Below are positions 27,324 to 62,068 of a DNA stretch of 64,000 bases, piece by piece. The stretch spans positions 41,456,788 to 41,520,787 of the forward strand of contig CM120640.1 in the NCBI GenBank assembly GCA_051362555.1, in the 5' to 3' direction. The position numbers were made by a program, and so were the translations under genes. The notes beneath the pieces were generated by a model, which ran no database searches, had not been told where the DNA came from, and was given only the letters and a program-made list of their open reading frames with translations. Within the stretch, counting starts at the first letter, position 1, and every line of letters starts with the position of its first letter. Origin of the DNA: Lingula anatina. Its lineage: Eukaryota; Animalia; Brachiopoda.

Positions 27324-27365
<42 letters not shown>

Positions 27366-36334: not shown

Positions 36335-37044
36335 TCAAGCGCTGATAGTTAGTCCATTTTGATGATGTCCATTTTGCTTTTCACAAGCTGGCGATAAAGG
36401 AAAGTCAATTGACTTTACATTATTATGCAGAAAGCCATTGGATGATGGAATGGTGCTGCTGCTGTCCACGTCTTCATTTTTTGATGTTTTGCCGTTAGCA
36501 ACAATGACGTTAATCTCGGATAAGTCTTCGGGACTTGTGCGTATGTCAGATAGTGGGACAGATGGCGTCTCGTCGTTGCTAGTGAAACCGGAATTTATTT
36601 TTCCGTTGCTTATTGGGCTAAGCGGCACAGTACAAGAATCACTTGGTAACGGCTCCGTTGAGGAGTTCTTATGTTTCTTAGGCATTGTCAAATGCACTTT
36701 ACGCCAGAAGCGCTCTTCTTCTTTTTGCCTCCGTTCTTCTTCTTTTCTAGCTTTTTTGTCGTCTATGGCTTCTAGTTCATGTTTGTTTGCTACATCGCTT
36801 GCAAACCCTGGCCATGTTATGTAAGTTATGCTTCTCAAAAGCTCGTTCAGCGTTGGATCAATGTCCTCGATTGATGAAATATCCTTATACATAATTGGTA
36901 TAATTCGTGTCTTATTCCTCAACATTTCCTCTCTGGCTCGGTGGTATTCAAACTTGGTCCACTCGCTATTGCAATAGTCAGGCGAAAGTATCAATATGGT
37001 ACGCCGACTGTTGTCAATAGCGTCTATAATCTGGTCACTGATAT
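36335..37044 (-). CDS. TIR receptor constant exon C3: second half of TIR domain + charged insert + Ser/Pro-rich tail
   Basis: Acceptor TTTTAG (AG at 37046-37045), phase 1: YISDQIIDAIDNSRRTILILSPDYCNSEWTKFEY...RIIPIMY...ITYITWP...ERFWRKV...LTISA*. Confidence 0.92.
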
Positions 37045-37165
37045 CTAAAATAAATAAAAATAAATAAACACTGTTAATCAACTTACATGCGTTATTTAGC
37101 TTTATACGGGCTTCAAGTCCCATGCTAATGCTTTGCTTCACATTTCCATGATACTATTTTCTTTG

Positions 37166-37167
<2 letters not shown>

Positions 37168-37200
<33 letters not shown>
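37168..37200. repeat. (GA)n microsatellite in TIR gene intron
   Basis: Direct reading. Confidence 0.95.
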
Positions 37201-37202
<2 letters not shown>

Positions 37203-37350
37203 TTGGGTGGAATAACTGCAGTGTATGAACTACAAATAGAACAAATAAAAATATTTTTAACCGCCAGCCAGAACTCTACTTCCCCCTTTCTTTATCACAC
37301 AGTGACCAGGGAAGCAATGAATGAAATACAGGAGAGATTCTTAAGCTTAC

Positions 37351-37494
37351 ATTCTCCAGGAATAAAATCCCTGTCATGGAGACACAACTTGAAGTTCATC
37401 TCGTTCTCCAGTCTCAGTGCTAGCGTCCGGTACACGAAGGCTTCGTCTTCTGTTCGACCTTTGAATGAGACGAAGGCGTCGTACTTCTTTTCAT
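37351..37494 (-). CDS. TIR receptor constant exon C2: TIR box 1 and box 2 (not in the ORF track)
   Basis: CTACAG|ATGAAAAG...GGAGAAT|GTAAGC, 144 nt, phase 1-1: DEKKYDAFVSFKGRTEDEAFVYRTLALRLENEMNFKLCLHDRDFIPGE. Confidence 0.93.
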
Positions 37495-37758
37495 CTGTAG
37501 AATACGGAATGGTGGCGTTAAATAAGCATGCTTTTAAAAGGATGGCGTTTGTAGTTAGAGAAATCTATATTACAAAAAGAACTCAGTAACAAAATACCTT
37601 TTGTGCATCTCTGTATCAAATGGTTTGGTTGTTACCTCAATCTGTTGATTAGGACAAGGTCATTTTGGTACACTCATGTTGACATCTAGGTTTTATTCAC
37701 AGCACCAAAATATTTTGCATTGCTAGTCATAAATTAAACCGACTGAAGCAGCACGTAC

Positions 37759-37935
37759 CGTCATCTTCATAAGGCTTCAGATAATACACGATCTTCAAGA
37801 TGAGTATGTTCCTGTGCTTCCACAAGTAGAGCGGCATCACCACCGCTACCACAATTAAGAGGATGAGGAGAAGGATACAGGCAGTCACTATGTACCACAA
37901 CCAGTCTGGAGTAGATTGAACTTGGATCACCGCCG
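37759..37935 (-). CDS. TIR receptor constant exon C1: short stalk + transmembrane helix + juxtamembrane segment
   Basis: TTTGTTTCCAG|CG GCG GTG... phase-1 acceptor; AVIQVQSTPDWLWYIVTACILLLILLIVVAVVMPLYLWKHRNILILKIVYYLKPYEDD; donor G|GTACGT. No signal peptide or ATG upstream of the TM helix. Confidence 0.9.
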
Positions 37936-40900
37936 CTGGAAACAAATTAGAAATACTATTGTTAATGCATGTTGGATCTTATTTTATCAGCGCGCAAGTG
38001 CTACTCATGTTTCTATCCACTTCACAGCAAGAGTAGCATCAAGCAATTTTACTGTTGATGCTTCCTCTCCTCTTCTTCACCAGAAACCAAGCCAAACATC
38101 AAAGACAAATTGGCACAGCCAAAGGAATGAGTACGCACGTGGTTGGATATGGACTCATAGAATACAAAAAAACGAAAAAATCCCTATCCACTTTAATATT
38201 TACCATATGAAGAAACCCTTGTGCGTAAGTCAGGTTGCACAGAAAACAACCATAAGCATTAGTTAGATTGCCATAAATCGCATCTTTGCTCTCAGCGCTC
38301 TGAGCTCCCATAAAAAAAGATCATAATTAATCAAGATAGATGGATCTTCGTAACATTTTATATCCTAAAACAGTACATGTTGTGGTCACAGTTGTCAACA
38401 CATTGGAGGTAATTTTCTTTGGCGGAGGTCTAAAACACTTTTGTTTCATTTTCACTACTTTAAATTTGGACGCGCGAAATAATGAAAGAAGGTTTTTGCT
38501 GTTCGCGGGGACGCTTTTCTTCTCAGAGATTTATAATGTAAATTTTTTACACGATAAAACGCATTTTCGGCCTTTTTAAATGTTACATTACTCATGAAAA
38601 AATTAGATAAATAAGTTTCATTATTTATTAAGAGGAACAAAAGAAAAAATACTGACAGAGCAAGCAATCAATACAGAATAACATTATTTGATAAAATTCA
38701 AGTCACTGCTATTGAAAAATAAGACACTAAGGTACATCTACTGCAATTAGTTCAAATAATTAATAAACCCTTGGGATTTAATTGCTAGGCTATATATAAC
38801 TTATATAAAAAACCCCCTCTTAATTGGATGAAGATAGGGAAGACCCCACAAATGAAAATATGTGCACTATTTATTTGGATATTTATTATTTATGCTATAA
38901 CATTACCCAATTTTAATCAATTAAACATTATCTAATGCTATAACTAGAAGGACCTTTCAATAAAAGCGACCGCTACCGGCCAAATTTCGAACACTATATT
39001 TGTGTTTGTCCTTTACTTATACTTTCTCTTAGGTTAATGAGGAGACGTAAAACTGAACTTCGATAAAGCAACGACACTTTTAACAGCGCATACGATGGCC
39101 ACCCAAATGCCGAGAAAATACGTTTATAATCAATGCATTGACAGGGCTGGAAATGAGAAACTTATTATTTTTCAAGAGAAAATATTGCAAAAGCGATAAA
39201 ATCCCTTTCAGTTTACTGCCCACGTGTCGTTTCCTTTACCTTTAAATGTGTGGGCGCAATAGTCCATCAATTCCTTCAGACACCAGAAACAGAAAAAAAA
39301 ACAATTTTATTATGGCATGTGCCTCATACTCATTTAATGACACTATCATGTCATGCTTTTAATATGGGAATATTCTTATATCCTAATATATTCTTATATC
39401 CTAATGCAAAGTACATACCCACGATTTCCTAATAGAAACGATGATGTTTCAAATAAATCATAAGTATGTAAATCAGTTAGCGAGCACTCATGCAGTAGTA
39501 GAAACCGTATTCAAACAGAGTCAACGATTTCTAATTTATCGTCATTATTCAACCATCATCCCTATTCACTGTCACTATTCATTACAAGCAATTTGTCAGA
39601 TTTATTCAATGAAAAGATACTCAAATATTTTTTTATGAGAGGGGGTATGAATGAACAAACATCAAATTATTCTAGAGTTATTCTCGATTGAAACTATGAA
39701 ATTTATCAGAATTTTGATATAAATGCCGAAACTACATATATAAATCCTCAGAGAGCTGCAGGGAAAGTGAAGCTAAAACCTGAACAAAACAGCCACATGC
39801 AGATGTGAACAAATAGGCAAAATGTGAAAGATGCGTGATGTCACGGATGATGCTGTTGGTTTAATAATTTCATATTGATTTTGATATCTTGTTGTGGTGT
39901 GCTCTATAGGTGAATTATTTCTCTTGCAACAACATTCTTTTTTGCCCACAAAAAATTCTCTTGAAAAAGCAGGAGTTACGAATGTCAATTAACAGACATT
40001 TTTGCAGGTCCCATTAGCTGGCCCAAAATTAAACTTAATCTCTCTCCCCTACTCAAGTAAATTATGATATTGATTATTACACTGTCGGATTTATAGTTTT
40101 ATTATTTCGACATTTTAATATAGAATTAGAATCTCGCTGTCGAAAACTAAAAACGCAATTTTTTTCATTGCCACCATATAGTTACATTCGCATTATTTTA
40201 TATTATATGTTGGCGTTGACCATCTTTTGGCAATTGCCGTTCCAACACAGTTATTACCTTAAGCAAGAATGACTTATTGCGCTTTCTGCCAAAATCGCGC
40301 AATGAATGGAGATGTACACATACACATATATAAAACTTGCTTGAAGTAAAAATATCATAATAAAACATTAATATTTGGGTTACGTGAATGACCTTACGCA
40401 AGAAAATTTTACATTTTTAATACTGAAAATCATATTTACATATATGTAAAAAAAAACTTTTCGAAACTTTTATAGCTGCGCTTAGCTGGTATACGTTTCA
40501 TCAAAGACATGGACCAAAAATTAGCGTACAAGAAATGCAGATACACGCCAAAGTTAAAATTTCATCGAAAATGCCACCAAAGGGCACCATACTTAAAACG
40601 ACTGTAGTTTGTTTTCGTCTAGCCTAGTTATACTCAATACATCCAAGAAGAGACTGCTTTAAACGGGCAAATAATTGCCTACAGTGTTTCTCTTTTTATG
40701 GCCCATAAAAATTTTACGAGTTATACTCCCCAACCTTGTTGTTTTAATGACAATGGACTAAAGCACTTTATAGACACCATTTATTATTTTGGCGAAACTA
40801 ATACTTAAAAAAGGTACAAATTACGACCATCCCTCGAAGCAGTAAATTATGACGAAACATTTGTTCCTGTCGGCTTAAAGTAACAAAAAATCACACATCC

Positions 40901-42092
40901 AGACTGAGGTTCAGACTGTTAGGCGACTTATATCGCTCCTCTTCCAGTGCGCATGCATACCTTGATCAATGCACCTGAGGGATGTGACTATATGATAGAG
41001 GTAAACACATTATTCATTAGACTGAAAAGCTTCGGGTGGAAACAGTGGCTGCATAATTGGCAGGTACCAGAGTGGTTTTATTACATTCTTGGAATAGAAA
41101 GAGCCGGTAGTGAAAACAGAGTATGATGTATGGCATAAAAACACTCATATCTGTCGCATCACGCTCTCTCTACCTTCAGACAGTTACATAAATAAACCAC
41201 CTCTCCGCCCCATGCCACATTTGATGCTTTCAGATATCAACACAACGCCGGTTGTCTTCAAAAAGGGCGGGCCCAGACAGTCAAAAAGTTCGAACTATTG
41301 TGCCGCACCCTTCAAAAATAAATAAATAAATAATATGAATATAAGGATGAGTGCTGAGTAAACGATGTAGATAAATGATGCCCACCTATATGTAGCATGA
41401 CATATAACTATATAAAGATTACTTAGAAATGAGTCACACCGCACAATAAAACAGATGTTTCACGATTATGTTCACCGAGAACGGCAAAGTCAGCACTCGC
41501 CCCGTTCCCCGAATCGTTTCTCGTCCGTTATGATCGTAATTATAGCTGTTAAATCATTTATTTAATTATATTTAAATATTTTCTACCAATAAAATAATAT
41601 TTAAACTTATTTAAATAATATGTTTCATCAATCCATGATCACCCGTTCGCCATTTATGACACGAGTTAAGTCCTTTACACATTTCATCCTATGAAATCTA
41701 CCCCACCAGGCTACATATAGCTACATGGGTCAGTTTGACTTTTCGTTGATGTATTTTATTTTTCAATTTCCATTAATTGAGACTGTTTCCGTGGATAACA
41801 TGGACAACACGTGGAATATCCTACTTGTCAGATTTGAGCAGCATACCAGGAAATGTTGAGCATATTATAAAGATGTCCAAAAAGGACACCAAGCAACCAA
41901 CCAATGGGAAGATTACGGTGACTTGGGTTTCCTAAGTTCTGTATCCAACCATTGTATTTATGTTCAATTCAGCAGTCTCAGAAATGTTTTAAAATTATTT
42001 TAAAGCAACGGTAGTCTATAAGCATCTCAAAATTCGTCGTCATGTCACTCAAACCTCTCGCCTCTATCCCCCTCATGAACAATTACAAAATA

Positions 42093-42143
<51 letters not shown>

Positions 42144-42144
42144 A
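42093..42144. repeat. (AAAT)n microsatellite
   Basis: Direct reading. Confidence 0.95.
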
Positions 42145-42252
42145 TGAAAATCTACCTGAACAAGTACCAAAAAATGATCAGACAAAAAAAACCTTTAGAA
42201 CAATAAATGTAGTACAAATACCCAACCAAACCACAACAACATATCTACCTAC

Positions 42253-42826
42253 TTCCTACTATTGTTGACAGAGTCGTGATCGACTGTTGACAGTAACTCC
42301 CCGTGTAAGGCCAGTTACACTGACAAACCGGGACACCTTTGTGGATAGTGCAGGTACCATTGGATCCACAGTTAAGAGGACAAAATTTGTCACAGTTCTC
42401 TCCTGTGTAGTTATCATAACAGATACACTTAAAGGCGCGCCCAGAGGTCATTGTGACGGTGACACAAGTTCCATTTTTGCAGGGGTAGTTTTGCGGACAT
42501 GTGCCAGAGCCCGATTCCTCGGTGGTATTAACGACGACAGATGTCAAAATGTCGTCTTGATGCTGGGTAAAATTTCCATCGTTTTTGGGAAAAGATTTTA
42601 GGATTTCACACGAGTCGCCAGTAAATCCTTCCCTGCACGAGCAGGAGCGCTGACAGCTCTCTGGATCAAATGTGCAGTTACCTCCATTTTTGCAGTATCC
42701 CTTTGCCCTGAAACCGCAATCGTTCATGCACCTCCACATGAAGGTTTCATCCGAAGAGGCAGAAGAAAACACGAGGACTACAGTTACAGCCATTAGTATC
42801 CGAGCTCTTATTTTGGAACGAACCAT
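42253..42826 (-). CDS. Variable exon V1: signal peptide + 8-Cys EGF variant + linker + tandem EGF pair
   Basis: MVRSKIRARILMAVTVVLVFSSASS signal; 574 nt = 191 codons + 1; donor A|GTAGGT (GT at 42252-42251), phase 1. Confidence 0.85.
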
Positions 42827-44246
42827 AGTTCAAGAAGTTAATAACGCCAAAAACACCATGCACAGCTTCCATGCACAAAATAGCTGACACACCAAATATG
42901 AAAATGGAAAACATTAACAAAAGTCCTGCCGTGAGTCCACGCCCGTTCCGATAACTCTTTGTTTCCAGGTGATACTTTCGTCGCCAATTTTTTTTAGTAA
43001 TATACCCAAAGTATAGGTGGCTTGACCAGCTGCCGCAACTTGGCTGGGTGCCGCTATCAGACTTAACACTTGTGACAGCGAAGAACGTGGCGCAGCCGGT
43101 CAAAATGAATTTCTCCGAAAAAAGGGGGTAGAACCGACTGTCCAAGTGCATTGGTACCAGAAAGTCCGTTTAGATCTACTGTAACTTAACCGAACATACC
43201 ACTGCAATCAGGTGACATGACAAGTTCAGGCCGCGTAAACCGTCCACACTGTGCGAACAACTACCCCAGACTCACTGTTGACGCTCCATTCCATTTGACA
43301 TCATGTAACTAACATTGGATTTCTCTATCAAGCTATCGATTATGTTGCACTCGTAAAGTATCATTATTCTCCCCCATAAACCTCTTAATCAACCTTAATC
43401 CCGATAAGTATCTCCGCGATCGCTGACGTGGGAGTCCGGGGAGGGAGTGAACCACGTTATTCGCCGAAGACGCATACCTGTCAATCATTTCTCAGCTCGT
43501 GACATGTAGATAACGACGTCTTTTTAGCTCTTTGCACTTATTAACTGCTTGCTGCCCATGACTTTTCTGGGCCAGGTAAAAAAATTATCTCTAGGTAAGG
43601 TCATTATTTTCAGGTTATGTTATATGCATTTTCTTCATTCTGCTAGTGTATCAGAGTGAAACCCCAATCATTTTAATGATTTATAAACGATTATTCTTTA
43701 ATGCCCTTATTGCCGTTATATTATACAATCCGCATTGAACAGAAAAAAATCGTTAAAAACCGTTAGATAAGCTTGAGGGATGAAAATAAAAATGAAAAGA
43801 GACCAAATTTATCTTCGATAGTTTGCGCTTTTAAGTTGTGTGCGTTTAAAATTAAAAGAATTGTGTTTAAAGTCGCCACATTGATCTCAGAAGTCACAGA
43901 TTTGCGCTGAATTAGGTCAACTTGCATGGAGGACCTGATCTTACTATATCTATTCGTTACCAAAAACAAGTTTTTTTTAATTCTATTTAATTCACATGAG
44001 AAATTAGGCCTACACATCAAAGATATGGGAGGAAGTAAGTACGCCGAACTAGTGTCAAGGTCACGTAACCGGAAAAGATCGAACCTTATGTAAAAGGTCA
44101 TTTGGAAAAAAGTCCTACCTGAATAACAATATGGAATCTTTTTTAAAATTAAATAGGAATGAACCCGTTCCAGATGTTAATCTTGATGTTGGGGATTTAA
44201 AACACCATTTAAATCCCCAAAAGCAATCAATACCAAGGCTACCTAC

Positions 44247-44655
44247 ATCGTGTGGTCATCATCTCCTCACAAAAACTCCCTGTATAGGGCCAGTTACACT
44301 GACAAACCGGGACATCCTTGTAGATAGTGCAGCTACCGTTGGCACCACAGTTACGCGGGCAGAATTTGTCACAGTTCTCTCCTGTATAGTTATCGTAACA
44401 GTTACACTTAAATGCCCGTCCCGTTGGCATCATGACGGTAACACAGGTTCCATTTTTACAAGGGTAATTTTCCGGGCAGGTGCCCGGTTCCCAGTCCGAG
44501 AAGTTGTTTACAACAGGAGTAAAGATGCTGTGTTGATCAATTGTTAAATTGTCACTGTTTTCCAAAATAGTCGGGCGTCCATCCGGGAAAGTGACCAAAA
44601 CCGACATGTTCACAACAACGGTCAAAAGTAACGTAAATATTCTCTTATGGCGCAT
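44247..44655 (-). CDS. Variable exon V2: signal peptide + tandem EGF pair (close paralogue of V1 3' half)
   Basis: MRHKRIFTLLLTVVVNMSVLVTFP signal; 409 nt = 136 codons + 1; donor T|GTAGGT (GT at 44246-44245), phase 1. Confidence 0.82.
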
Positions 44656-47486
44656 TATTTTTGTCTGTTGTCGGGTGCAGATTAGGGATTCCTTTCCATC
44701 AGAATGAAACCTGAATGTCAAAGATATCAAGCAAACACTGCCATGAGTTGATTTCCAATTTTTTTAGAAAAACACTGAGATTCTGCCACACGTTGATTAC
44801 ATATAAGCAGACGCTCTCCGCCTTGCTTTAGGACAGATGTCTCATATGACGTGTTGACAACGACAAATCCTGCGATGTTTGAACTAACCAACTTCCATTG
44901 TATGCCTCACTTTCACAATGTGACAAGCGGGTATATGTCACCAAATATATTGAATTAAAATGTGTCCTTTACTGCAGTATTCTACCCTAAGACGCCTTCG
45001 ATAGCGCAAAAAGACATCAAAAACTTCAACTCCAAGGTACCATAGGCGTAAATCCTTTGCGAAAACAACATACGTCATCTTGTTAATTTGATTGTCACCA
45101 TAATGACATAAATATTCTAAGTTGAAGTAATTCTATTCCGAGGATTAATTCCCAACATTTTTTTCACAGTATACTTCAATGGCGACTTCATCTAAAGACC
45201 AAAATGTTCTCATGATGTTTGAACCAAAACTTCCATACAACTCACCATCATGCATATTGGTATTGCACCGTCTGTGGATATTATTTTATATGACTAATTA
45301 TAAAGTCAATTGCTGTGTGCTGTTCAGTTTGCCCAAAGCGGTAGATGATCGCTAACTTGCATGACAATAAGGTCAAAAAATAATTACAGTCACTGTAACA
45401 GCTGAAAGGCACTGGGACCGAAAAGGTAACAGATAAAGTAAAGGTGGCGGTAGTGGGAGTTACTGTGTGCTTGCCCCTAAGATATATCGTATTCCCGTAC
45501 AAAACTAAGAGTAACCATTCTTTCTAATCATGACTTGTTGCCCGTCATTGCAGTAGGAATAATAACAAGTTCTATTTTGATTCCCCAGTAAAGAACGAAT
45601 AACGTTCTAGGCAAAACTTGACTCAAATCTTCTCGCCTATTCCCCAAGACATGCACTTAGACACGCATGCAAACAAGCACGCACAAAAGATATTTTCCAA
45701 AATTCGCTTTGTACATTGGAAGCCTAGGTACGTGATTTTCTAACTTTTTTTGTAATTTAAGGGGTGTGTCGGTATGTTTCGTGTAAGCTTGGATTACGTA
45801 TAATCTGTTGTTAGTCTTCTTCGATGGGAATGATCTCATCTCAAAAAGTACATGTCATCAAGGAGCATGTATAGAAATATAACGCCTACACTATTTAGTT
45901 ACTTAACCTCAAAACACTAAAGGTATAATCATTTACCCAAAATATGTACTAGTATACACGAATGTTATGGTCAACTCAATCACAGTATTATATCATTCAA
46001 CTGAAGTAAGAACTCTCGGGTTACTTCCTTCAGTGACTATAGAATCTCGCCTGTGATTGGCTGCATGACGTCTTTCAATAAACACAACAGAAAAAATATC
46101 TCCCCTATTGAAAATAATTTCTTAGAAGTACATAAAGGAAAAAAATGTTAAGTTGGACAATTGGCAAAACAAAACAGACCCCTTCCATTTTCAATCTAAA
46201 ATGCAATTCATAGGGCCCCAAAAAAGTTAATGTGAACGAAAACCTGACAGTTCTCATCTGGTAAAAACTATTTATTCACATGTTATATTAATCTGCAGTT
46301 CGGCATACATTTATCAATGCTTTAGCAGCACTTGTGCCACTCATTGTTATAGGAGGTATACTTCAGTAAAAATCACTACCAACACATTCCATTTGGAAGT
46401 GCGTCACCCTTGGTATTGGATTGGCTAATCTATACATGTAATTACGAAGGACATCATTTTGGTTCTGTATTAGATGAACAATCCACCTTTTCTCTTACAG
46501 TATTCCATATGTCGCTTTCGAAAGATTTTTTATGACAGTCACACTCTTTGGTACTTTCATGTTGACAAACTCATTCGAGGACATGACATCGACATAAAAC
46601 CAAATGTCATGTAAATGAATAAGGAAATACTCAAATGTAACATCTGAGGTGCTTAAAGTAAGATCGCGTTTCTAGGTGGATACGCACATTTACTCGCTTT
46701 TCAGATTCCATTTACTCTTCACTAAAAACGTCACTATTTTGAATAGCGAAGTCGCTCTCCACCGTTTTAAGATGGTCTTTTACATTGACCCGTGACTTAG
46801 ATAACATAATACTGAAAACCATACTTCGTACACACCAATGATTTGAATATAGAAGACTAAGTCTTTGAGGTTAACGGCATTTTATAAAAATTAAATATCA
46901 ATGGTAATTGTACATCGTCTAATGTAAAAAAATATATTTGTCAATTAAACAACATGTGAAAGCTGTTGGGTAACTGTTAACCATATAATGATAAATATAT
47001 AAATAAATACTTTTTCGACCATTGAGATTATTTATTACGGCTGTCGAAGGTGCTGATGTGTTTATCCATTCGGTCGCTTCACTTGCTTGTCCTTACTCTT
47101 CAATAAACCCTCGTTAATTAGCTATCACTCTCCTCAACATCTTGACAACCTCTGTTCACGACCAGTTAGGCTACACGATCGAGCAACTCGTCCTAATGGG
47201 AGCTGGCAGAATATTTGCGATCACATTTACTTTTTGGTGTAATTCGTGTTCTATGCCTACCCCGATACAATACACTTGTCAGAAGATATTCATGATAAAT
47301 ATTGTAAAACGCCAGTCTGGCCCAAGTCAAATAGCCTACCCACTGGCCAGGAAAGCGCTTAAAAAACATAAAAGGGTCAGTGAGGTATTGGTCATCTTGA
47401 TGTGTCTTGCTGGAAAGTTCGAGGTAGAAAAATAACTTTTCTAAGTAGAAAAAAAAACGTTTTCCTTCCAAGTTGCCCAATTTGTC

Positions 47487-48071
47487 TCAGTTTGTCTTCC
47501 TTGTTTCATTACAAAACGGTGGTATAAATCCATCGTCGCAATCGCATACAGGGTTTCCCGGTGTCTTGGCAAAACATTGGCCATGCCCATGGCAGTCTAA
47601 ATCTCCACAGTCGGTATTGCAGTCCGACCCAGCCCAGTTTTCGTGACACTGGCACTGGTAAAAAGGACCAGTAAGACGGGGCGAAATCAAAGTCAAATTA
47701 CCCAGCTCTATCTCGACACAGTCTCCGTGGACGCATGAACCACACATCGAAGGGTTAAGCCCCCTTTTGTTTGCAGTCGTTGTGCTGCCATCTTGGTCTG
47801 TTGGTGACGTTCCAGTGCTCGAATGCAGCATGGCGTCAGGTGTCACTGTTGATGCTAACTCTTCAAGACAGGAGCACTTACATAATTTTTTATCAAAGCG
47901 TAGGTTGCTAATACCACATCGTTTGAGAAGTCTGATGCACCCTTCTATATCACAGTTCTTCTTCTCGACTCGGTCAATGTTAAACCCAAACGCTCTACTG
48001 CTGTATCTGCTGTACTCCCATAACACAAGGGAGACAAATATCCAAATGGCCTGCTTCAATATCATTCTCAA
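47487..48071 (-). CDS. Cassette V3: signal peptide + Cys module + S/T linker + tandem EGF pair; no intact donor after the last Cys (secreted product or donor-dead exon)
   Basis: 194-aa ORF; EGF pair homologous to the V4 C-terminal pair; A|GGAAGA at the position where a phase-1 GT is expected. Confidence 0.75.
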   Translation of the reverse strand: MRMILKQAIWIFVSLVLWEYSRYSSRAFGFNIDRVEKKNCDIEGCIRLLKRCGISNLRFDKKLCKCSCLEELASTVTPDAMLHSSTGTSPTDQDGSTTTANKRGLNPSMCGSCVHGDCVEIELGNLTLISPRLTGPFYQCQCHENWAGSDCNTDCGDLDCHGHGQCFAKTPGNPVCDCDDGFIPPFCNETRKTN

Positions 48072-48653
48072 TCAAAATGTTCGAAACGTGTTTTGGAGTT
48101 CTTATCAGTCCACTTATATATGCTTCATTATGCATATAAAGCATGTGAAAACTTCTGAATATTTTCTCAAACTAAAGAAAGCAGCTGAGACATGTGAAAG
48201 GAACCACAGATTTGGTTGCCATGATGTGCGTCATTAATGCTTTTAATTTGCAAATGAACCCGGAAATTTCGCTTAAATTGACCACACATTGAAAGTTCAA
48301 AAGACTCTTAAAAACGTTGAGGAGGTGCGTGCAAAGAACAACGAATGCCTTTAAAAGACGTTCACAGGGACATAAAATGTCAAATTGACGTAAAGTTACT
48401 GATGCATTGCTATGGAACTAATTTGAGGTTATATACCAATTGAGGAAGTGGCAACTGGCTTAATTGTATTTCGTTTATTAATAATTGTATGATTCGTACA
48501 ACAAGTATGAAAAATCTAAAGGATACCCTAAAACCGCAAAACATTCCCATTCAAATTTATTATTTTTGCACATTTAGAATATAGGTTATTCACATTATAA
48601 AAATCGTGACTATTTAATACCTATAACCGCTACACATATGCTATCTAACTTAC

Positions 48654-49827
48654 TTGCAGTCGCACTTGTAGTCGGCCGAAGTTCTTTGCATTCAGGTGGC
48701 ATATACTGATCGTGGCAGTCGCACACCGCATGTTTGGTACCATTGACCATGCATTTACCATTGCCATTACAGTCTAGTGAGCACTCTGAGTTGCAGTCAT
48801 GTCCACCCCAGTTGTCATAACACTGACACTGATATGACCGGCCGGGCAGCCCAGGGAGAGCAAGGAATTCAGTTCGATTCATCGATATTTCAATGCAATC
48901 GCCATGAACACAAGATCCGCACAGAGATGGGGAACGGGACTTGGCGGCAGTGACAGTACTTTCATATGGAATGTTACAAAGAGGTCCCTTCCATCCTTGA
49001 TCACAAATGCACCTGTCAAACTTCGCAAAACCACCCAAACTAAGAGATTTGCATTCACCATGGATGCAATTCAGGCGGCACTTTCGAGGAGTAGCAGAAG
49101 AAGAAGAAGAAGAAGAAGAGGTGAATGGTGCCACACTGGTTGTCATTGCGTCCCCAGTACCATTACCAGTGGTATTGAGAGGTATAATTTGGTTATTACA
49201 GCTTGATCCAAACCACGTTTCGTGGCACTTGCACTGATAGACGTATCCTGGGAGATTGAAGCCACCCGGGAACGTTCGGGATAAATGCGATGTGCCCAAA
49301 GCAACTCGAATACAGTCTCCGTGGACACAGGTTCCGCACATCCACTGGTAGGTTTTGACGGTGCTGGCGTTTTCTGTTATAGGCAGTGTACTGAGTGAGC
49401 GTAACGACGTACCGTGGGTAGTTATTTCAACGACGGGACTGTCGCAAAGGTACCCTTGCCAGCCGGCATTACACACACAGACTGGGAAATGATAAAGCAG
49501 CCTGCACGATCCATGGAGACAACTCAAATCGCAAGGAGACGTTGTCGATGATGACGTGTTATACGTTGTCCGTTTTTCGGGGCTTGAAGTGGTCGCATTG
49601 TATGGTATGACAGGTACAGACGCGTTTACACACCTGTAGGTACATGTCGTAGTGTTGAATTCACAAACCTGCCCAGGCTTACACAGGTTTAGCGCTACGC
49701 GACACAGATTCATAGGGCATCGTCTACTCTGCCTTTTTGAACGATTTCCTACTGACACCTCCTCAGTAAAACTCGTTTCCAAACGGATCAGGAAAAAGAC
49801 TAAGATCACATTTAGAAAAGACTTCAT
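48654..49827 (-). CDS. Variable exon V4: signal peptide + RSKR furin site + 6-Cys module + 5 EGF domains with S/T-rich spacers
   Basis: MKSFLNVILVFFLIRLETSFT signal; 1174 nt = 391 codons + 1; consensus donor A|GTAAGT (GT at 48653-48652), phase 1. Confidence 0.88.
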
Positions 49828-52016: not shown

Positions 52017-53505
52017 TTGCCAGAGTTGAATTGGACGGTTTGGGCTTATTGCACAAGGGTCCCGTGAAATTAGGATGACAGCTACATCGCATTCCATCAC
52101 TGACAACCACGCAATTCCCTCCATTTGCACAGGTCAAGTTACAGAAATCACTGCAGTCCGCTCCGGTGTAGTTTTCATGACAGGCACACTGGTATCCTCC
52201 AACTTCTGGAACCAATATGCAATCCCCATGATTGCACCGGCCGCATTTTTTGTCGATAGGGGGCGGGGTCAAGTCCCGTACTTGAGTATTGTTTCTGAGA
52301 ATTGCAGGTATGGTGACTCGCGGAGGCCCAGACACACAGTGCATCTCGCCTTCGTCGTTTATGTCACAGTGGTTCTGATCTCCGCAGGACAAATCACAAA
52401 CCTGTCCGCAATCGTCACCTATAAAGCCGTCGAAACAAATACAAGTGTACCTATTGATACCTGCATAAAAAGCACACATTCCCTCCAGACACGGCCCGTC
52501 ACAGTATGAAAATTTGGAAGTCGTTGGAATGACCGAGGCAGATGTAGAGCTGGCATCTGTAACGGGGATACAGTCAACTCTGCAAGTTGCTTCATCAAAA
52601 ACACATTCCGTGTCGTCTTCGCATGGGTTTAGGAATGGTTGACTGCACAGATTGTAACAAGGGGCTGCCGAATCACCATCAGTAGTACTGGTCGGTTTTT
52701 CCGTATTCCTGGACTGCGTGGTTTCTGACGGCGTGGGTGACGATGTGGTAGGCATTGGTATACAATTTGGACGGCAGGTAGAGAAATCAAACTGACATAA
52801 CATGCCGTCGTCACAGTTTTTGAGAAAAGGCATAGCACATACATCTAGACATGAGACTGGGGGAGGGGTGAAAGGAACTGTCGCCCTTGCAGTGGTAATA
52901 CTAGCGCTTTGGGTCTGTCCTGGAATGTCAGAATCTATTTGCCCAGCTTGAGTGGCACTTGGCGTACTGTTATAATGGTCCGATCCTGTTGTGCTGGTAG
53001 GGCTTGGGGGTTGAATGCAATTCGGCTTGTAAGTTGAATAATCAAAAACGCAAAGCAGACCGTCTTCGCAACTTTTTAAGAACGTCATAGCACATTCATC
53101 TAAACAAGCCACTGGTGGCGGTGTAAAAGCACCAGTCGGCACAACAGTGGTTGCAGTTGTACTCGTAGGCTGTCCAGTAGAACTGGCCAGTGACAGATTT
53201 ACGGTAGTCACAGAGCTTGTTGGTTTAGTGGTACTTTCGTTCTCAGAACTTGCCGCTGTGGCGCTTGATGGTTCAATGCAGTCGGGCCGGCAGGTAGCGT
53301 AGTTAAAAACACACAGCATGCCGTCGTCGCAATTCTTCAGGAACGTCAAGTCACAAACATTAATACAGGATAAAGCCGGGGGAGCTACTCCACCTTGCCG
53401 TTTCATTCTACTAATCAGTCCAGCAGAAGATACCAAACTGTCGGCCAACAAAAAAAAACAAAAAATATAAACAAACGTCGCCGTTTTCCAGTGTGGATCC
53501 GCCAT
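52017..53505 (-). CDS. Variable exon V5: signal peptide + RMKR furin site + four 6-Cys modules with mucin spacers + EGF domains ending in the tandem EGF pair
   Basis: MADPHWKTATFVYIFCFFLLADSLVSS signal; 1489 nt = 496 codons + 1; donor A|GTAGGT (GT at 52016-52015), phase 1. Confidence 0.88.
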
Positions 53506-56500
53506 CTTAATCGTGTGTACTTACAATAGTGACCACATGTAGCTTGGCCAGCGACCTATATGCATACACACTATTTCATGAGTATGGGAGCGTTAGCGTG
53601 ATTCAGTCACCGTAACATCCGGCCCTGATGGAGAAGATTGAAGCCACCCGGACCTGATGCTGTGGATAACACAATAGAAGCCACACAATCATATAAATAG
53701 TCAGAAAGACCTTCGGGGCGTGAGTTAGGGCATAAAATACGCGGCCAACGTCATCACGCATTACGTCTTTTGTTCACGGCCCGTCCCGTCATCCAGTAAA
53801 AGATAACGTACATAGCTGTGTGAATGGAGCCTCATTATTATAAAAACCCTTTCTGTGGTCGCTTTCAGAGCCATAAACACAAATCGAAAAACATTCTCGC
53901 TTAAAAAATCTAGTCACAATACCTATATATACTGTACTAGTAGTTTGACACAGTTTTACGTCGCCCGATGTAAACAGCTGACCTTTTATGTCCTTTCACC
54001 ATAATCGATGATCAATTTCATTCAGTAACAATCGTTGTTATTAATCAAAACATTTCTTAGAGGTAAACGATAATGGTTTTTTAATAAAGAACCGACGATG
54101 CATCTTGATTTACTTGACATTCGGAAATGATCTCTGGGCAGTATAATAGTTCAGTGTTATATTACACAACTATCTGTAATTCTCTACAGCAAATCATGAT
54201 ATTCTTATTCAACCGAATTCAGCTATTGTGACTACAAAAAAAAAAAAAAAAAAAAAAAAACAACCTCGAATGAGCGGTTTTTACATTACGTAAAATCAGG
54301 TAGGCCTATATATCCTTTTTATGTATTGTCAGAAATACGGAAGAAACAATGTCTCTTTTGTCTTTGTATTTCGTTAATATACATGTATCTTCATATAGGG
54401 CAATAATCACATCTTATTAGCAGTCTTACTTCCAAATAACTGCATTCAACAAGTGCACATTTAAATCTCTGCTATCATGCACTTAATATTTATGTTATTC
54501 ATTATAGAGTAGAATTAGGATAAGCCATACAGAATAAAAAATGGTCGAGAAAAGCGAACAGTTAGTGCTCGTGCACTTTTGTTTTTACAAAATTATTGTC
54601 TCGGAACTTGGCTTTTGACGACATTTGATACTATCATAAACTGTGAGAGGGATAATACAACTTGGGTCCTATAGCACAAACATCATGATCATGCTCTGAT
54701 ACTTTATTGCGTTTTTATATTTACTGTAGCACTTAGTAAATAGCGGTATAGAAAAACGCAAATAAAAGTGGTACATAATGTACACGAGGAATATTTATGC
54801 TACCGTGCTTGAGACCCAATAGGCGTTTTACTTCTCTTCAGGAGAGCCCCTACCTTACCTTTTTATACGAAAAGAGGGAAGTATATGAATGGAATTTTTT
54901 TTAATTTGGGTGTTTTTGTTAACAACACTTATAAGGTAATATAGGGGGCTACGTACAAAATTTCAATGTAAACATGTTTAGAACAACACGAAATACAGTA
55001 AATAGAAATGCCCTCATGTGAACTTGAGAAGGCACAAAATATGGTTTAGTAGTGCACTGTAAATAACAAAAGAAAATACAAATATTACACGTAAGACCAG
55101 AAAAAGGGGGGTGCACAGTGGAGTACATATGAGGTCCTTTAAAAAAGCCCCAAAATGGAAAGAAAAGATAAAAAGGGAAGTGGGAAATTTTTGGAAAAGA
55201 AGGAGGTACAAGGAGACCAAACATGCCCCTGCCTAATAACTGGCATTTTTATAGAAGCAGCTGTTTGTTTTGTCTATAAAGGGTGGTATTTGGACCTCCA
55301 TACCTATTGTATCCTTATAAATGATACACATAAACTCTATTCTAAGCCAAGAACAGGCACTTACCATTTGGTCAACATCGGATGATTCCGTATTTGTGAC
55401 GTTACTATAAACTGTGCAGTGCAATATGTTCTTCCTAAATTTTTGACATTCATAGGATATGTCAGGAAAATTATATGTCATGATATGACACATGAGCGAT
55501 TTTAGTGAATGTTGACATCGAAACATATCTGTGAGTAAATCATGAAACTTAAGTTTGTGAAAAAATATTATAATTCGACAATTACATACAGATCCTGATG
55601 AATCTATAAAACATCTTATTAACAGCTTTTGTACATGGAGATTTCATTCTGAGTACTCAATAAACAATACAGCTCAGTCGCCACAGTTATTTGATGAACT
55701 TATTTCATATCCAACCTTGATTACCTCGGTATGGAAATATATTTTAAAAAATAAACTTGTCTGTCAGGGATGAAGTAAAGTAACATTTCCCACTTTCATG
55801 AAAGAAGACAAATATGTGTACTGACAACTGACATCGCCTGTCACTAATTCCAACTTTGTCTGAAAAAAAAATACTATATGTCATAAGAAATGAGAGTCCA
55901 TTTTAACTGTGTGGAACAGTCAAGAGTCATATGTGGGTTGGAAATTGCAATTACATGGTCTACAGTGAACGTATTATACTTGCTTTGGTTGTAATTGTAA
56001 CTTTTACCGTCACTCAGAACAGCAGGACTCATCGTTGCGGACTTCAGGACAATGATGTCGTGTCATGTGCATACTACAGGGGATGACTCACGTTTTACAC
56101 GTATTCACTCTATCAGTCCACCCTGTTACTGTCGGTAAATTTTCTATCAGAGCTCTTCTTTTTATCTACAACCCGTGGCAATTACCAGAAAAACTCCTAT
56201 AGTGATTAATTATATAGCCGGTGATACATGTACACGCTATTGGAAGACCTACTTGTTGTGAGTACATGACCTTAAAATCGTGACATTCGTTCCTAATGAT
56301 GCTATTTGATTTAATGGCCTATTTGACATTTACATGATCACCGCATGATATATGGTTCGGGCAGAAAGTGGCATTTTTACGGATTGATATTCTTTATAGT
56401 TTCTTAAAAAATCGAAGTGACAAGAGAACAATGTCAAGGTCACATATACTGTATATATCGTATAATATGTACACAAGACGAAACACCGGATGGCGTGTTT

Positions 56501-57283
56501 TTCGTCATTATTTTATCTAGTTAGTAATAAAAAATGTGTCTTACTGTAAAATAATTTGTAATGGTCACAACCGAACTTGCACAGAATAAAAGAACAACTG
56601 TAGATCGGGGTCACTTAATGCCTCGTTACATCATATTTGACAATCACTGAGACTGATTTTTTTACGTTTTGTGTGGGTGGAAATTGAAATATTTTATTCT
56701 ATTTTGTTCAGAGATTCACCTTAGTTACATTCTGCTAGCACACAATAATTTCCTTGTTTGCTTAAACCACATTCACCCTGAGCTGTGAAGGTAGGGTTAA
56801 TTTGAGGTTAAATGCCTTTGTCTAAACCCAATTAGAAAAGAAAGCGACTCACAGACGTGTTGGTCCTAAAAATAGTAAGGTCATTTTTTTTTTTGGGTTC
56901 ATTCTATATGTGTATTTGAGCACTATCAAGCCCTTCTCATTTTATTTAGATATGATGATGATGGTGCTTATCATTAACAAGAATCTTATTTATTGATTTT
57001 TTTAAAAAAGCTCGCAAAGTTTAACTATGTATTGAAAAAGCAGACCTAACGTCATTTCATCAGTCCATTACTCTCCGCACTATCAACTGCATTTCGTGAT
57101 AACTTATTCGGGTGCAATCATTTCTATTCCATTTTTATTATTGACAATACATGTATATACAAACACTATTGTGCATAGGGTCTCGTAGAGAAAATACAAG
57201 CAAAAAAAAGGTTATTTCAAAATAGTACAGCGAAAACTACCTTCAGTTGAATGTTAGTATTATCGAAGAGCAGAAAACCTCAC

Positions 57284-57647
57284 CTGCCGTGGGCGGCTCA
57301 CCGCAGCTAAAACCACTCCATCCTCCGTAACAGTTACATACAGGCTTGGAATATTCCGGGTGTATTTCACAGGACCCGTGGGGCCCACAGTCCAGGGGAC
57401 AATGCTGATCACAGGCCAGCCCAGTCCACCCGTCATCACACGAACACGAGAAGGCTGGTAGATTCATGAACCGCAGACAGATTTGTAGACAGTTTCCGTG
57501 CACGCAGCGGATTCTGCAACTGTCTTTGGGAATGGACTTTTTCTGACACTTGTTTTCCATTGCTTCGGTGGACGGGAGTAAAATCCAAAGAAGAAAAACT
57601 GTGTTTAAAGTGTGAAAAAGTACCATGAAGCTACATCCCTGCCTCAT
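57284..57647 (-). CDS. Variable exon V6: signal peptide + tandem EGF pair (first EGF with an extra Cys pair)
   Basis: MRQGCSFMVLFHTLNTVFLLWILLPSTEA signal; 364 nt = 121 codons + 1; donor CAG|GTGAGG (GT at 57283-57282), phase 1. Confidence 0.85.
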
Positions 57648-58124
57648 AACATCTGTGGCGGAGTTTTCTCAGCAGTCATTCTCCCAGCTAAACGTGCGTG
57701 ACGCGCTAACATTAACCCCTTCATTAATTCCACTTTAGTCCTTAAGTGTGGTGTTTCCAAAACGGCGTCGAAAGTTTAGCAGAATACAACTTTGTGGTAA
57801 TTGCCAGTCTTTAGCAGATAAGGCTTAGGCTAATTGTAGGCTACATTTAGCATACTTTGCATATAATGAAGGTATTTAGGGGTATATAGTCATAGAGGGA
57901 TCTTCAGTTGCGATAACGTAACAAAATTTACTAATTTGTTGTTATTTTCTTTTTTTTTTTAAGAAACAAAGGACGCTGATGTTTTAAAAGTTTTAATTTT
58001 AACATCGAAGAATGACTCCATCCATTGACTGTTGCTTTAACATTAATCTCCTTTAGCTCAATTTTGTACAATTCAGAGAGGGATCTTCATATTGAAAAAA
58101 TTAGTCATACCAAGTACAAAGAAA

Positions 58125-58125
<1 letters not shown>

Positions 58126-58182
<57 letters not shown>
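58126..58182. repeat. (TA)n microsatellite
   Basis: Direct reading. Confidence 0.95.
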
Positions 58183-58186
<4 letters not shown>

Positions 58187-59378
58187 CAATTGTGTATTTT
58201 ATGTGACCTTGCACCGATTCTTTATAATATTTCAAAACACTTAAATGCTACTGACAAAGCTAGTTGGTGCACGCAAACAGTCATAGGACACTCTGGGAGA
58301 GGCTAACTCCCATAAAATGACTGAACTGTCTGAAGGTAGAATGGCATGAAAAAAGAAAAAAGCCGAGAGACCTGGGCGTCTCCGTTTAAAACAGGCATTA
58401 TTTCCTCATGCCTTCACAAACACACACACACACACGCACACACACACACGAGAGAGAGAGACGATAGAATGTGTTTGTTGTCAATATAATTGTGAAAGTT
58501 GAGACCACTTAATCGTAATTTCAGGTGAGAGATGGTATCTGTTGTCTCCGTGGGACCTACAATTTTACGGTCCAGGGTTACTGTTAATTACAAATTCAGG
58601 TAGACACTTGACGCTAGACTTAGAATTCTTTGAAAAAAAAAAAAAAAAAAAAAAGCAATCAGAATAAACAAACAAACAAACAAACAATAATAATAATAAT
58701 CCGAGAAAAAAATAAACGCTCAGTGGCCTTTGTTTGATTTAATAGGGTTTCGTAGGGTTTCGCAAGCGAGAGGACACATTTTGTCATCATCCTCATCGTT
58801 AATTATTAAAAAAGATATTGCTCTATTACTGTGTTTCAGTGTACATTTTTAAGTTCACATAAATCAAATCAATTCAAATTTTAATTTGAGGTTATATTAT
58901 CGTTAAAAAAACGAAATGGATTATGAAAGTTTTAAAATGTTTGGCTACAGGTAATATTGTTATTTCGTTTAGATAATACATGTATTTTCGTTGTGTGTTT
59001 TTAAAGTATTGGTTATACAGGAGTTGGAGATTTTTTTAAAGTTTTTTTTTACCATAAAATTAGGTTCGAAACAGAAAAAAATATCTTGATCTGTGCGTGG
59101 CGTGGATGCTTATGTGCCGCTGACACGCTTATCTTTAAAACAACGCCCAAGTCGTGATTGTTTTTACAGTCACATTTTGTGAAAAATCATATTATTCTTT
59201 TCTATCTTCGTAATGTTAATTCAGTATGCTTATTTCACATCGATGCCCTAATACCCGTAAACATTGTATCACAAAGACGATGCCTTTGCCTTATATAATC
59301 TCAAATGTATTCCTCCCATAAATCTTATCACAGTATAACACTTGTATTATTTCACTTCAGTAGCTGTTTTATCATAGT

Positions 59379-60303
59379 CAGGCCTAACCAACTACCAGAC
59401 TCGGCACCTAAGGATCCAGAATTAACCGGTATATCGGACCACACTACCCGTTTTCAAGGTGTGTGTCAGATCGCATTTCGGAGTATCAGTCAGAACACCG
59501 ACAGGATAAGCCCACGCTCGGCTGTCACCTTGATTATATAGTAAACAACTGTCGTATTTAATCACTATATGATTTTAAAACCGAGGGCATAAATTTGAAA
59601 GCCACCTAGATGAACCTTAGACTGCCACATCAATCTAATACAATGCAAAAAAGCCCTATCAAAAGTGGTTAAAACATTCAAACCGAATGTCGTAAAGTCC
59701 CCATATACCCCCATAGAGACAATGAAATAGAGTACTCTAAGTAATAGATAGACCCCTCGTCTGACGAGGGGTCTATCTTATTTAGACCACGGGTCCATTA
59801 GCGGGTTATTAAGGGCCCCTTTACACTGGACGGCGTCCTTTCTGCGTCCAGCAGTACGGCCCCATTTGAGAGTTAAATTTTTTTAATATTTTACGTGCCG
59901 ACAACTGGCTGATCATTGAGCATTCATTCTGATAAAAAATTAATGCTCGTGCCTCCTTATTAAGACCACAGCGATGCCAAATTTCATGGTCGCAGAAAGG
60001 ACGCAGAAAGGACGCCGTCCAGTGTAAAGGGGGTATAACGCATTCTTGAGAGAAGTGTGGTTACGCGAGTTACACCACATCTGAGTCTTCTGTTCTTTAC
60101 TTCCACTGTGGTCTAAAGTAAGAGTACAGTTTAAGGTTGTTCAGCCGAGCGTGGATGAGCCCGCAGTCGTCCTACAAAATTTGTTCTAGGGTATGATACT
60201 CCTATATGCGATCTGACACACACCTTGAAAACGGGTAGTGTGGTCTGATTTACCGGTTAATTCAGAATCCTTAGGTGCCGAGTCTGGTAGTTGGTTAGGC
60301 CTG
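59379..60303. mobile_element. Non-autonomous DNA transposon, 925 bp, ~100-bp near-perfect TIRs, 5-bp TSD ATAGT
   Basis: ATAGT|CAGGCCTAACCAACTACCAGACTCGGCACCTAAGGAT...GTCAGATCGCAT matches the reverse complement of ATGCGATCTGAC...ATCCTTAGGTGCCGAGTCTGGTAGTTGGTTAGGCCTG|ATAGT. Confidence 0.9.
59813..60035. mobile_element. PIF/Harbinger-type MITE nested inside the 925-bp element
   Basis: TAA|GGGCCCCTTTACACTGGACGGCGTCCTTTCTGCGTCC ... GGACGCAGAAAGGACGCCGTCCAGTGTAAAGGGGGTA|TAA: ~34-bp perfect inverted repeat with a TAA TSD. Confidence 0.85.
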
Positions 60304-61405
60304 ATAGTCATTACATCTTATTTTAACTTTATAGCCTCATTCCATGTATAGAATTGAATCAGTCATATTAATAATTGCACTTTGCAATGTAATATGAAAA
60401 ATTCATTTTCAATACGTCGACTAACACGCTGTCGTATGATGGGTCATTTCTTAACTCACTTAAAATGCCAATATTTACTGGTTTTTGTATAGAAATGAAA
60501 AAAAGTGTCATCAGAAATTTTGTGGCATCGAAAGCGCTATCAATCGTGATCATCAGTGTGATAAAATAATCTGAATATTTCTGCCTTTATTTTATATGAG
60601 AAAAAAATAAAGAACAAGACTGGAGCGACTCTATCTGCCGGCATAAAAATGGAGCTGAAATGAGTTTTCGTCTAAAATTTAAGCCATTTAGCACTAAATA
60701 TCTGTATCCAGATGTTTTTTGTTTTTTTTTCGATCATGGAATTACTTCAATAATTTGATGGACTTCTCATTTATCCAAGGCCCTTTGTTGATAAACGTCA
60801 CAAACTGATGTGATGTTGAAAAGACTAAGCTAAGTTTTGTAGAGCCTGGTGACATTTTTATGGAAGTCAGAGTGGTGCAATGACCTCGAATGGCAGCACA
60901 AAGTTCTTCATCGTCATTAATCTACTTTTGGATCTCGGCTTGTGCACATTCTTAGTTTACGTTAACTGCTTTTACATATAGGATACCATAAGAAGACACT
61001 TGAATTTTCAAAATCTCGATACCAAAATAAAAAAAAACGACAAAAAATAACAAAAGTAACAATATATTTGATAAAGCAGTATGAAAGCGTATGACATATA
61101 ATGTAATGTATATAATGAAAAGTAAAGCGATGGTGATAAAATCTCAATTAAGATGCCAGTGGTAGCATTCTATGAATGAGTAACGTACACTTTTTGCTGC
61201 AGGGAGGAATGACAGTTTTGCCATGATTTTTTTTGCATCTACGACCTTACATATAACATACATTTAGTTCAACAGTGAGTTTCATGTTGGAACACATAAA
61301 TCTTCTTTCCAAACTGACAGATGATACAAATGAGATTTTTTTAAAGAAAAGAACAATTTTGTCCTGAATCCATAATTAAACAGGCAAAATGGAAAACATC
61401 CAGAT

Positions 61406-62068
61406 CTACTTAAAAATCTGTGTCAATACGGATAATACTATTGACATGCACAAAACACGTGGTGATGGTATTGACATCGTTCCTAGTCCAGTGTACGGTG
61501 CAACCTTGTTGTTTGAAGATGTCGCCGTCGTTGTCACGTCCGCCGTTGTTGTGGGCATAGCCTCCACAAAAACTTCCTGCGAACAATTGGGACCCATGAA
61601 CTCAGCAGTACATTTGCAGCGATGTGTGCAAGTTGTTGCATTGAATATGCACTCCGCGCCGTTGTAGCATTCGTGAATGCCTTCGTGCGTGTTGCAAAGA
61701 TTGATGCAAGGTCCAAGGGGCCTGTGTGTGACAGGAGGCTCTGTGCTACTAGTTGTAGTTGTCAGCACATCGTTGTCACCAGTGTCGGTGCTCGGGGTTT
61801 GGCATGTCTCCCCTGTAAATCCAGGCGCGCACGTGCACTTTTTGGTACAAGTCGTCCAGTCAAAGTCACATTTGGCGCCGTTGTAACATTCGTGAATGAG
61901 TTCCTGCATTTGACAAACATTGAACCAACATTCGCCAGTTGCTCTTTTTTGTAGTAAGTGCATCAGTGTATTTGTCCTTTTTAATTCTGCCCCTAGTGAT
62001 GGACATATTAGAAAGACGAATGTTTGTATGATACATATATGATACACAGTCCTGAGGGTCTTCATCAT
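61406..62068 (-). CDS. Cassette V7: signal peptide + KR site + two 8-Cys EGF variants + Thr-rich stalk + hydrophobic C-terminus (GPI-anchor-like); probably a stand-alone single-exon paralogue
   Basis: 220-aa ORF; CxNxC..CYNGAxCxF..TTC...CxC...F.G..C twice; ends RVLCMSIVLSVLTQIFK*; no strong phase-1 donor seen. Confidence 0.8.
   Translation of the reverse strand: MMKTLRTVYHICIIQTFVFLICPSLGAELKRTNTLMHLLQKRATGECWFNVCQMQELIHECYNGAKCDFDWTTCTKKCTCAPGFTGETCQTPSTDTGDNDVLTTTTSSTEPPVTHRPLGPCINLCNTHEGIHECYNGAECIFNATTCTHRCKCTAEFMGPNCSQEVFVEAMPTTTADVTTTATSSNNKVAPYTGLGTMSIPSPRVLCMSIVLSVLTQIFK

Follow-up and report, generated by a model that had tools for sequence, protein, structure and literature searches.

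There are several described loci in which one of a series of variable exons is joined to a common set of constant exons. In vertebrate UGT1 and GCNT2, the signal peptide and the recognition part are encoded by a large variable exon, and the effector part and the transmembrane (TM) segment by constant exons (PMC1885805). In the α and γ protocadherin clusters, tandem large variable exons are spliced to three constant exons, and orphan single-exon members are present; the variable exons are highly similar, include the TM segment as well as cadherin repeats, and have CTCF-bound promoter elements (PMC7811963). Chelicerate sDscam is an invertebrate surface receptor with tandem 5' cassettes, alternative promoters and constant exons, having immunoglobulin (Ig) domains, 50-100 isoforms and docking/selector pairing of RNA (PMC9258826). 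Drosophila PGRP-LC is an immune receptor of the IMD pathway with three variable-region isoforms differing in recognition; its variable region lies 3', and RNA pairing takes part in the splicing that selects it (PMC6191721). The domain class EGF-TIR is listed in a figure legend on the oyster (PMC4346834) and in a table on Aplysia, where its function is given as unknown (PMC9334734). We describe a locus of the brachiopod Lingula anatina, found in a 64-kb stretch of genomic DNA (the window, meaning the whole stretch analysed), in which five exons encoding EGF ectodomains lie on the minus strand upstream of a single TM+TIR unit.

The constant unit consists of three exons with AG/GT ends and a single open frame from phase 1. 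Its product starts with about 12 residues outside the cell, followed by a TM helix, a TIR domain recognised by Pfam and a low-complexity tail; no other TM+TIR unit, and no other TIR copy, lies in the window. Upstream of it are seven intronless cassettes, V1 to V7 (Table 1), all of which (7/7) begin with a hydrophobic stretch resembling a signal peptide, as judged by hydropathy only. Five of them, V1, V2, V4, V5 and V6, are 3n+1 nucleotides (nt) long up to a donor that lies 6-12 codons past the last Cys and fits the TM exon. A phase-1 GT[AG][AG]G within 45 nt is expected at 3.4% of positions, and the probability of finding it in at least five of seven cassettes is about 1e-6. The spliced products of V1, V2, V4, V5 and V6 have 534, 479, 734, 839 and 464 residues, respectively, without an internal stop. 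V3 and V7 lack a usable phase-1 donor and cannot join the TM-TIR tail. The terminal EGF pair is present in six cassettes and absent from V7. Exon ends, frame, lengths, donors and product sizes all agree with a preliminary description of the locus made from the sequence, which had also stated that none of these five cassettes has a TM exon of its own. On this last point, a scan of 37.7-62 kb for an acceptor followed by a hydrophobic frame gave two matches, one of which is the common TM exon. The other, at 42155, was rejected as a private TM exon, as it is a TTTA microsatellite running into a stop. No private TM exon, second TIR or further EGF cassette was found in the window. The architecture of variable and constant exons is almost certainly real. 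What has to be corrected is the host: the preliminary description, in referring to "other mollusc genomes", implied a mollusc.

The same exon combinations exist as RefSeq gene models. Isoforms X1 to X5 of L. anatina LOC106167474 consist of V5, V4, V1, V2 and V6, respectively, followed by the constant part, and are joined at the predicted donors. Their lengths equal the predictions for V1, V2 and V5. Compared with the window, isoforms X3 and X4 show one residue difference each and isoform X1 shows eight; constant exon 3 is identical to that of the isoforms except for one residue. Isoform X2 adopts an in-frame ATG of V4 at 49917, 30 codons further upstream, and exceeds the form in the window by one residue. 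RefSeq generally bases alternative isoforms on transcript alignments. The intron of isoform X5 in particular is probably derived from transcripts, because a de novo predictor would hardly build its frameshifted, senseless leader of 52 residues. Isoforms X4 and X5 bear the name "toll-like receptor Tollo", which is misleading for an ectodomain without leucine-rich repeats (LRRs). A protein search with V5 only gave no match at E 1e-8 though isoform X1 was in the collection, so that this search is insensitive.

Splicing of V5 is seen directly in RNA reads. Eight of nine RNA runs carrying the species label (runs X1-X5 and X7-X9, numbered independently of the RefSeq isoforms) were mapped on 37740-57730, a stretch that ends short of V7, with about 6% or 25-30% of the reads of each run. 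A canonical joint 52017-37935 (GT..AG, minus strand) is present in 22 reads from four of the eight runs: six reads in run X1 (four starts), seven each in runs X7 and X8 (six starts each) and two in run X9 (two starts), with none in runs X2-X5. All six junction reads of the stranded run X1 have the usual direction for minus-strand RNA. The joint skips 14,081 nt containing V1-V4. In five runs (X1, X3, X7-X9), V5 depth is 0.57-0.87 of the upper-bound depth of the TM exon, and V5 is the dominant expressed cassette in the runs mapped. No joint of V1, V2, V4 or V6 to 37935 is among those listed for the eight runs, at depths too low to expect any. The V1, V2 and V4 bins have a depth of 0-2.5 in runs X7-X9, V5 yields 0.64 junction reads per unit depth, and an exon at depth 1-2 would reach the three-read threshold in 3-14% of runs; the missing V1, V2 and V4 joints therefore say little. 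Among the five joints to 37935 that the preliminary description had proposed, that of V5 is borne out by reads, and those of V1, V2, V4 and V6 by the RefSeq isoforms only. One of the outcomes that it had named as fatal, splicing of V1 alone to 37935, does not hold, since V5 is joined there in reads.

Some other features appeared in the mapped reads. At 51669-51812, just downstream of the V5 donor, a short repeat collects very many reads (depth up to about 290 in each direction and bin) and numerous loose ends; no tRNA was called in it, and it is a widely transcribed interspersed element. A non-canonical joint inside this repeat, 51717-51780, was dropped. In the stranded runs X4 and X5, which belong to one study, most of the few reads at 48412-50412 lie opposite to the direction of the gene, amounting over V4 and its upstream to roughly 9 and 7 reads' worth of depth, respectively; antisense transcription over V4 is possible.

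Table 1. Cassettes and constant exons of the L. anatina locus, with their positions in the window and the matching isoforms of LOC106167474
Feature	Positions	Strand	Length (nt)	Content	Donor	RefSeq isoform
Constant exon 1	37759..37935	-	177	phase-1 acceptor (present in junction reads), short stalk, TM helix, juxtamembrane helix		
Constant exon 2	37351..37494	-	144	TIR box 1 and BB loop with proline		
Constant exon 3	36335..37044	-	710	remainder of TIR (PF01582, E 9e-15), charged helix, disordered tail, stop		
V1	42253..42826	-	574	signal-like N-terminus, N-type EGF, Ser/Thr linker, terminal EGF pair	42253	X3, XP_013401732, 534 residues
V2	44247..44655	-	409	signal-like N-terminus, terminal EGF pair alone	44247	X4, XP_013401740, 479 residues
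V3	47487..48065	-		orphan cassette; stop 7 codons past last EGF	no in-frame donor	
V4	48654..49827	-	1174	Cys module, three single EGFs, terminal pair, Ser/Thr linkers	48654	X2, XP_013401725, 765 residues
V5	52017..53505	-	1489	four Cys modules, mucin-like linkers, EGFs	52017	X1, XP_013401717, 839 residues
V6	57284..57647	-	364	signal-like N-terminus, terminal EGF pair alone; open in the window	57284	X5, XP_013401749
V7	61406..62068	-		orphan; two N-type EGFs, Thr-rich linkers, hydrophobic C-terminal tail	no phase-1 donor	

On this evidence, we give a probability of roughly 0.62 to the reading that the locus is one gene in which V5 (from reads) and all five cassettes (from gene models) are joined to the common tail, likely from promoters of their own, to yield five surface receptors. 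Several points weigh against it. The directly seen joints are one of five, that of V5 alone, and V6 depth is about zero in all eight runs. V6 is also frameshifted in isoform X5, where its last eight codons are in frame and another frame is read before them, which implies a small indel in V6 of the RefSeq record, either an assembly error or a null allele. The regions upstream of the cassettes share no 6-8-mer above the level of shuffled sets, a search that a degenerate motif could escape, unlike the variable exons of UGT1A and the protocadherins. A shared leader exon may lie beyond 57730; loose ends were seen for the best-listed rows (46 and 149 further). The six terminal EGF pairs may not have a single origin: FastTree unites all six (0.82), and IQ-TREE unites V1-V5 (87/83) with V6 left without a place, the AU test being compatible with one clade (p-AU 0.32). 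Finally, only 42 of the 65 EGF-labelled relatives with a readable loop retain the BB-loop proline.

The terminal EGF pairs of V1 and V2 are 81% similar and those of V3 and V4 51%, the other pairs being at 30-40%. Between V1 and V2, dS is 1.1-1.3 and dN/dS 0.08-0.15, and V2 appears to be a young paralogue of V1. Read variants in V5, counted among the 43 best supported (141 and 411 further rows), comprise 19 silent and 24 replacing changes (pN/pS about 0.37), and the TM-exon variants among the best-supported rows are silent in three of three. The cassettes are old paralogues maintained by purifying selection and not hypervariable. V4 and V5 have an RxKR site shortly after the signal-like stretch, a possible propeptide cut. 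V3 is predicted to be a secreted EGF protein, and the tail of V7, judged by eye, may be a signal for glycosylphosphatidylinositol (GPI) attachment. In an Atlas comparison, the best match of V7 is a P28-type cluster with a score below 0.9, which is a lead only. A frame of 56 codons with a hydrophobic start at 42747-42917 (minus strand) overlaps the start of V1 out of frame, and is possibly an upstream open reading frame (ORF) or a remnant.

A search with the TM-TIR part matches EGF-TM-TIR proteins of oysters, scallops, freshwater mussels, a limpet, abalone and Capitella, relatives with a homologous ectodomain, TM and TIR, of the same domain class as the oyster and Aplysia entries (PMC4346834, PMC9334734). 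The Lingula receptor belongs to a broad EGF-TM-TIR family of molluscs, annelids and brachiopods, apart from the LRR Toll-like receptors (TLRs). In a tree of 156 TM-TIR parts, from which 17 near-duplicate rows and short matches were omitted, one side (SH 0.74) contains 87 of 87 EGF-labelled and none of 40 LRR-labelled rows. An inner group of 85 rows (SH 0.99) includes 69 that are EGF-labelled without an Ig motif. The labels were assigned by regular expression, and deuterostome Ig+EGF receptors account for several of the "EGF" rows at the clade's edge; the EGF side also includes Ig-TIR proteins from Mytilus and Lingula, along with hemichordate and echinoderm proteins of Ig/EGF-TIR type. The outer clade is therefore one of non-LRR TIR receptors and not of pure EGF-TIR. 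Seven of its members from hemichordate, echinoderm, mussel and Lingula (P0116, P0144, P0125, P0090, P0140, P0111 and P0098) have ectodomains with Ig, EGF and cadherin- or HYR-like parts and group with the EGF-TM-TIR family, not with TLRs, and several Patiria TIR-receptor copies lie on one contig. In an alignment of 55 proteins, five Cys are the same throughout the terminal EGF pair. V1 is the cassette closest to the mollusc ectodomain layout, and the Atlas places its isoform with a mollusc-rich TIR+EGF cluster (0.96).

Among the relatives found, every gene has a TIR of its own, whether it stands singly or belongs to a tandem of whole genes; in freshwater mussels, the family comprises several separate genes, three of them with consecutive locus tags. 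In two other species, ORFs P0014, P0028 and P0030 encode a whole ectodomain and end at the junction with the TM exon, so that an ectodomain in one exon may be the ancestral state. Ectodomain swaps were sought among 194 proteins by comparing the last 70 ectodomain residues in those 51 pairs whose TM-TIR parts are at least 97% identical. Ten Lingula pairs and one oyster pair differ there, and the oyster pair was rejected as a swap, being an internal deletion. No swap was thus found outside Lingula among these near-identical pairs, a weak negative, as clustering at 50-90% hides isoforms. The array could be derived from an ancestral gene whose first exon held the signal peptide together with the whole ectodomain and ended at a phase-1 intron; this exon would have been duplicated in tandem together with its promoter.

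The receptors resemble Toll-like and IL-1 receptors in being type I TM proteins with a TIR domain and a BB-loop proline behind a single TM helix, and differ from them in that Pfam finds no LRR or Ig ectodomain; cadherin repeats are likewise absent. In an AlphaFold model of the V1 isoform (mean pLDDT 73.8), the EGF modules, a TM helix at 202-231, a juxtamembrane helix and the TIR fold are confident. In sequence, the TIR comes closest to TLR2 and IL-1RAcP; in fold, IL-1RAcPb and IL-18R-beta are the best matches. The counterpart of the BB-loop proline in TLR2 is needed for MyD88 signalling. By family likeness, ligand binding to the EGF modules would cluster the receptors, and the proline-bearing BB loop would recruit a MyD88-type adaptor towards NF-kB. 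Isoforms would mix via the common TM-TIR part, and V3 as a soluble and V7 as a GPI-tethered product could be decoys or co-receptors. The balance is tipped somewhat towards an immune role. A developmental or neural role with the same splicing, in which an orphan IL-1R-like receptor would bind matrix or ligands of the host, is unlikely, and there are points on its side. IL1RAPL, and Drosophila Toll in development, are models for such TIR receptors. The fold ranking headed by IL-1RAcPb and IL-18R-beta, the grouping of the family with Ig-TIR receptors and not LRR TLRs, purifying instead of rapid evolution, and Pfam EGF matches of teneurin/Delta type would all suit this role. On the other hand, the family has grown in freshwater mussels by tandem copies of whole genes, a frequent pattern among immune genes, and replacing variants make up 24 of the 43 listed in V5 versus none of three in the TM exon.

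The simplest reading of how a cassette is chosen is promoter choice combined with use of the first donor. A transcript starting at a given cassette would use its donor, and downstream cassettes, mostly without acceptors, would be removed with the intron, as is shown for V5; the choice would most likely be set by tissue, stage or stimulus, as for UGT1A, and not at random in each cell. Each variable exon probably has its own promoter. V3 has low sense-strand depth in the stranded runs X3, X4 and X5, and its reads in runs X4 and X5, where V5 is nearly silent, indicate separate starts. A single promoter with a common non-coding leader, either an upstream exon or trans-spliced, that feeds mutually exclusive internal exons in the manner of Dscam1 or PGRP-LC is a quite unlikely alternative. 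It would account for the lack of a promoter motif common to the cassettes and for the one or two acceptor-like sites that V3, V5 and V7 have in the 600 nt upstream of the ATG. It does not agree with V1, V2, V4 and V6 (4/7 cassettes), which have no acceptor-like site in these 600 nt. Nor do the listed joints place an exon before V5: its depth falls to at most 0.34 in the bin above 53748, and no upstream joint is among those listed between 53.5 and 57.7 kb, up to 57730. Docking/selector pairing between the 1.5 kb before the acceptor and the 300 nt after each donor is not above the null for any of the seven cassettes. Upstream of the cassettes, no site matching a CTCF-like pattern and no kB-like site was found.

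It is also very unlikely that V5 forms the single working receptor, with the other cassettes as rarely used, decaying copies and the extra RefSeq isoforms as low-level leak splicing. V5 has the sole listed junction and a large share of the TM-exon depth, V6 is frameshifted in RefSeq, and V3 and V7 lack donors. However, all cassettes are open and their Cys patterns complete, even though silent divergence is close to saturation (V1/V2), the V1, V2 and V4 bins reach a depth of about 1-2.5 in runs X7-X9, and the junction of an exon expressed at the lower part of this range is rarely listed, as calculated above. A protocadherin-like identity code, with random promoter choice per cell, EGF ectodomains that, between cells, recognise like or unlike isoforms and a TIR output, has in its favour the exon layout, orphan cassettes resembling the single-exon Pcdh-beta genes and faint antisense reads over V4 that recall the antisense-driven choice in Pcdh-alpha, but is hardly tenable with five isoforms only, cassettes of 121-496 codons, the low similarity of most EGF pairs, no CTCF-like site found and bulk use strongly skewed to V5.

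The locus has tandem paralogous large exons with a signal peptide (by hydropathy) and a recognition domain, each spliced in one phase to one constant set, as seen in reads for V5 and in RefSeq only for V1, V2, V4 and V6. To this extent the preliminary description, which had compared it with protocadherins, UGT1A and sDscam, was right. Several findings weigh against a close parallel to protocadherins or sDscam: the cassettes are only five, very unequal and deeply diverged, V5 is dominant in the mapped runs, and the common upstream motif, CTCF-like site and docking/selector pairing were all not found. Unlike protocadherins, the Lingula locus has a constant TM, EGF modules in place of cadherin repeats and a TIR output; unlike sDscam, the whole ectodomain is swapped. 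As no promoter motif common to the cassettes turned up, nor any CTCF-like site or docking/selector pairing, the locus seems closer to UGT1A than to a protocadherin code with stochastic choice. UGT1A is an enzyme without sequence kinship and not a receptor, and the Lingula cassettes vary widely in length and content and lack a common upstream motif. PGRP-LC, whose isoforms have one common signalling part, is the nearest immune counterpart. It would be a long shot to see in the locus a third independent promoter-choice surface code after vertebrate protocadherins and chelicerate sDscam, lophotrochozoan and wired to TIR, in which cells pick EGF ectodomains, isoforms mix via TM-TIR, V3 and V7 serve as decoys and antisense transcription sets the choice.

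The preliminary description knew of no such architecture for TIR receptors. In the open literature, no account was found of the layout for a TIR receptor or of this locus, and subscription papers and supplements may bear on it; the EGF+TIR combination itself is already listed for oyster and Aplysia, and the five isoforms stand in RefSeq under uninformative names. A known design, the variable first exon, is extended here to a new cargo, the TIR receptor, and to a new phylum, Brachiopoda. If the preferred reading is true, promoter switching gives one gene five immune-type receptors. The locus offers a natural series of ectodomain swaps, with five sensors of very different size and content on one TIR output, in which the ligand specificity of an unstudied family with dozens of relatives in molluscs, annelids and brachiopods can be tested at constant output. 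It also sets side by side two routes of expansion in one family, duplication of exon 1 in Lingula and of whole genes in freshwater mussels. Such diversity escapes gene counts of invertebrate TIR receptors, in which the locus is a single gene under a misleading TLR name.

Between V6 and V7, nested inverted repeats at 59378-60304 (111 nt at 95% and 34 nt at 100% identity) look like a non-autonomous transposon insertion. On the plus strand, a gene with a fibronectin type II domain is represented by exons that, together with one unassigned exon, lie at 27122-27851 and 32294-32635 and are convergent with the TIR locus, and exons with a DHO_dh match, which we take to be dihydropyrimidine dehydrogenase, lie at 17455-20499.

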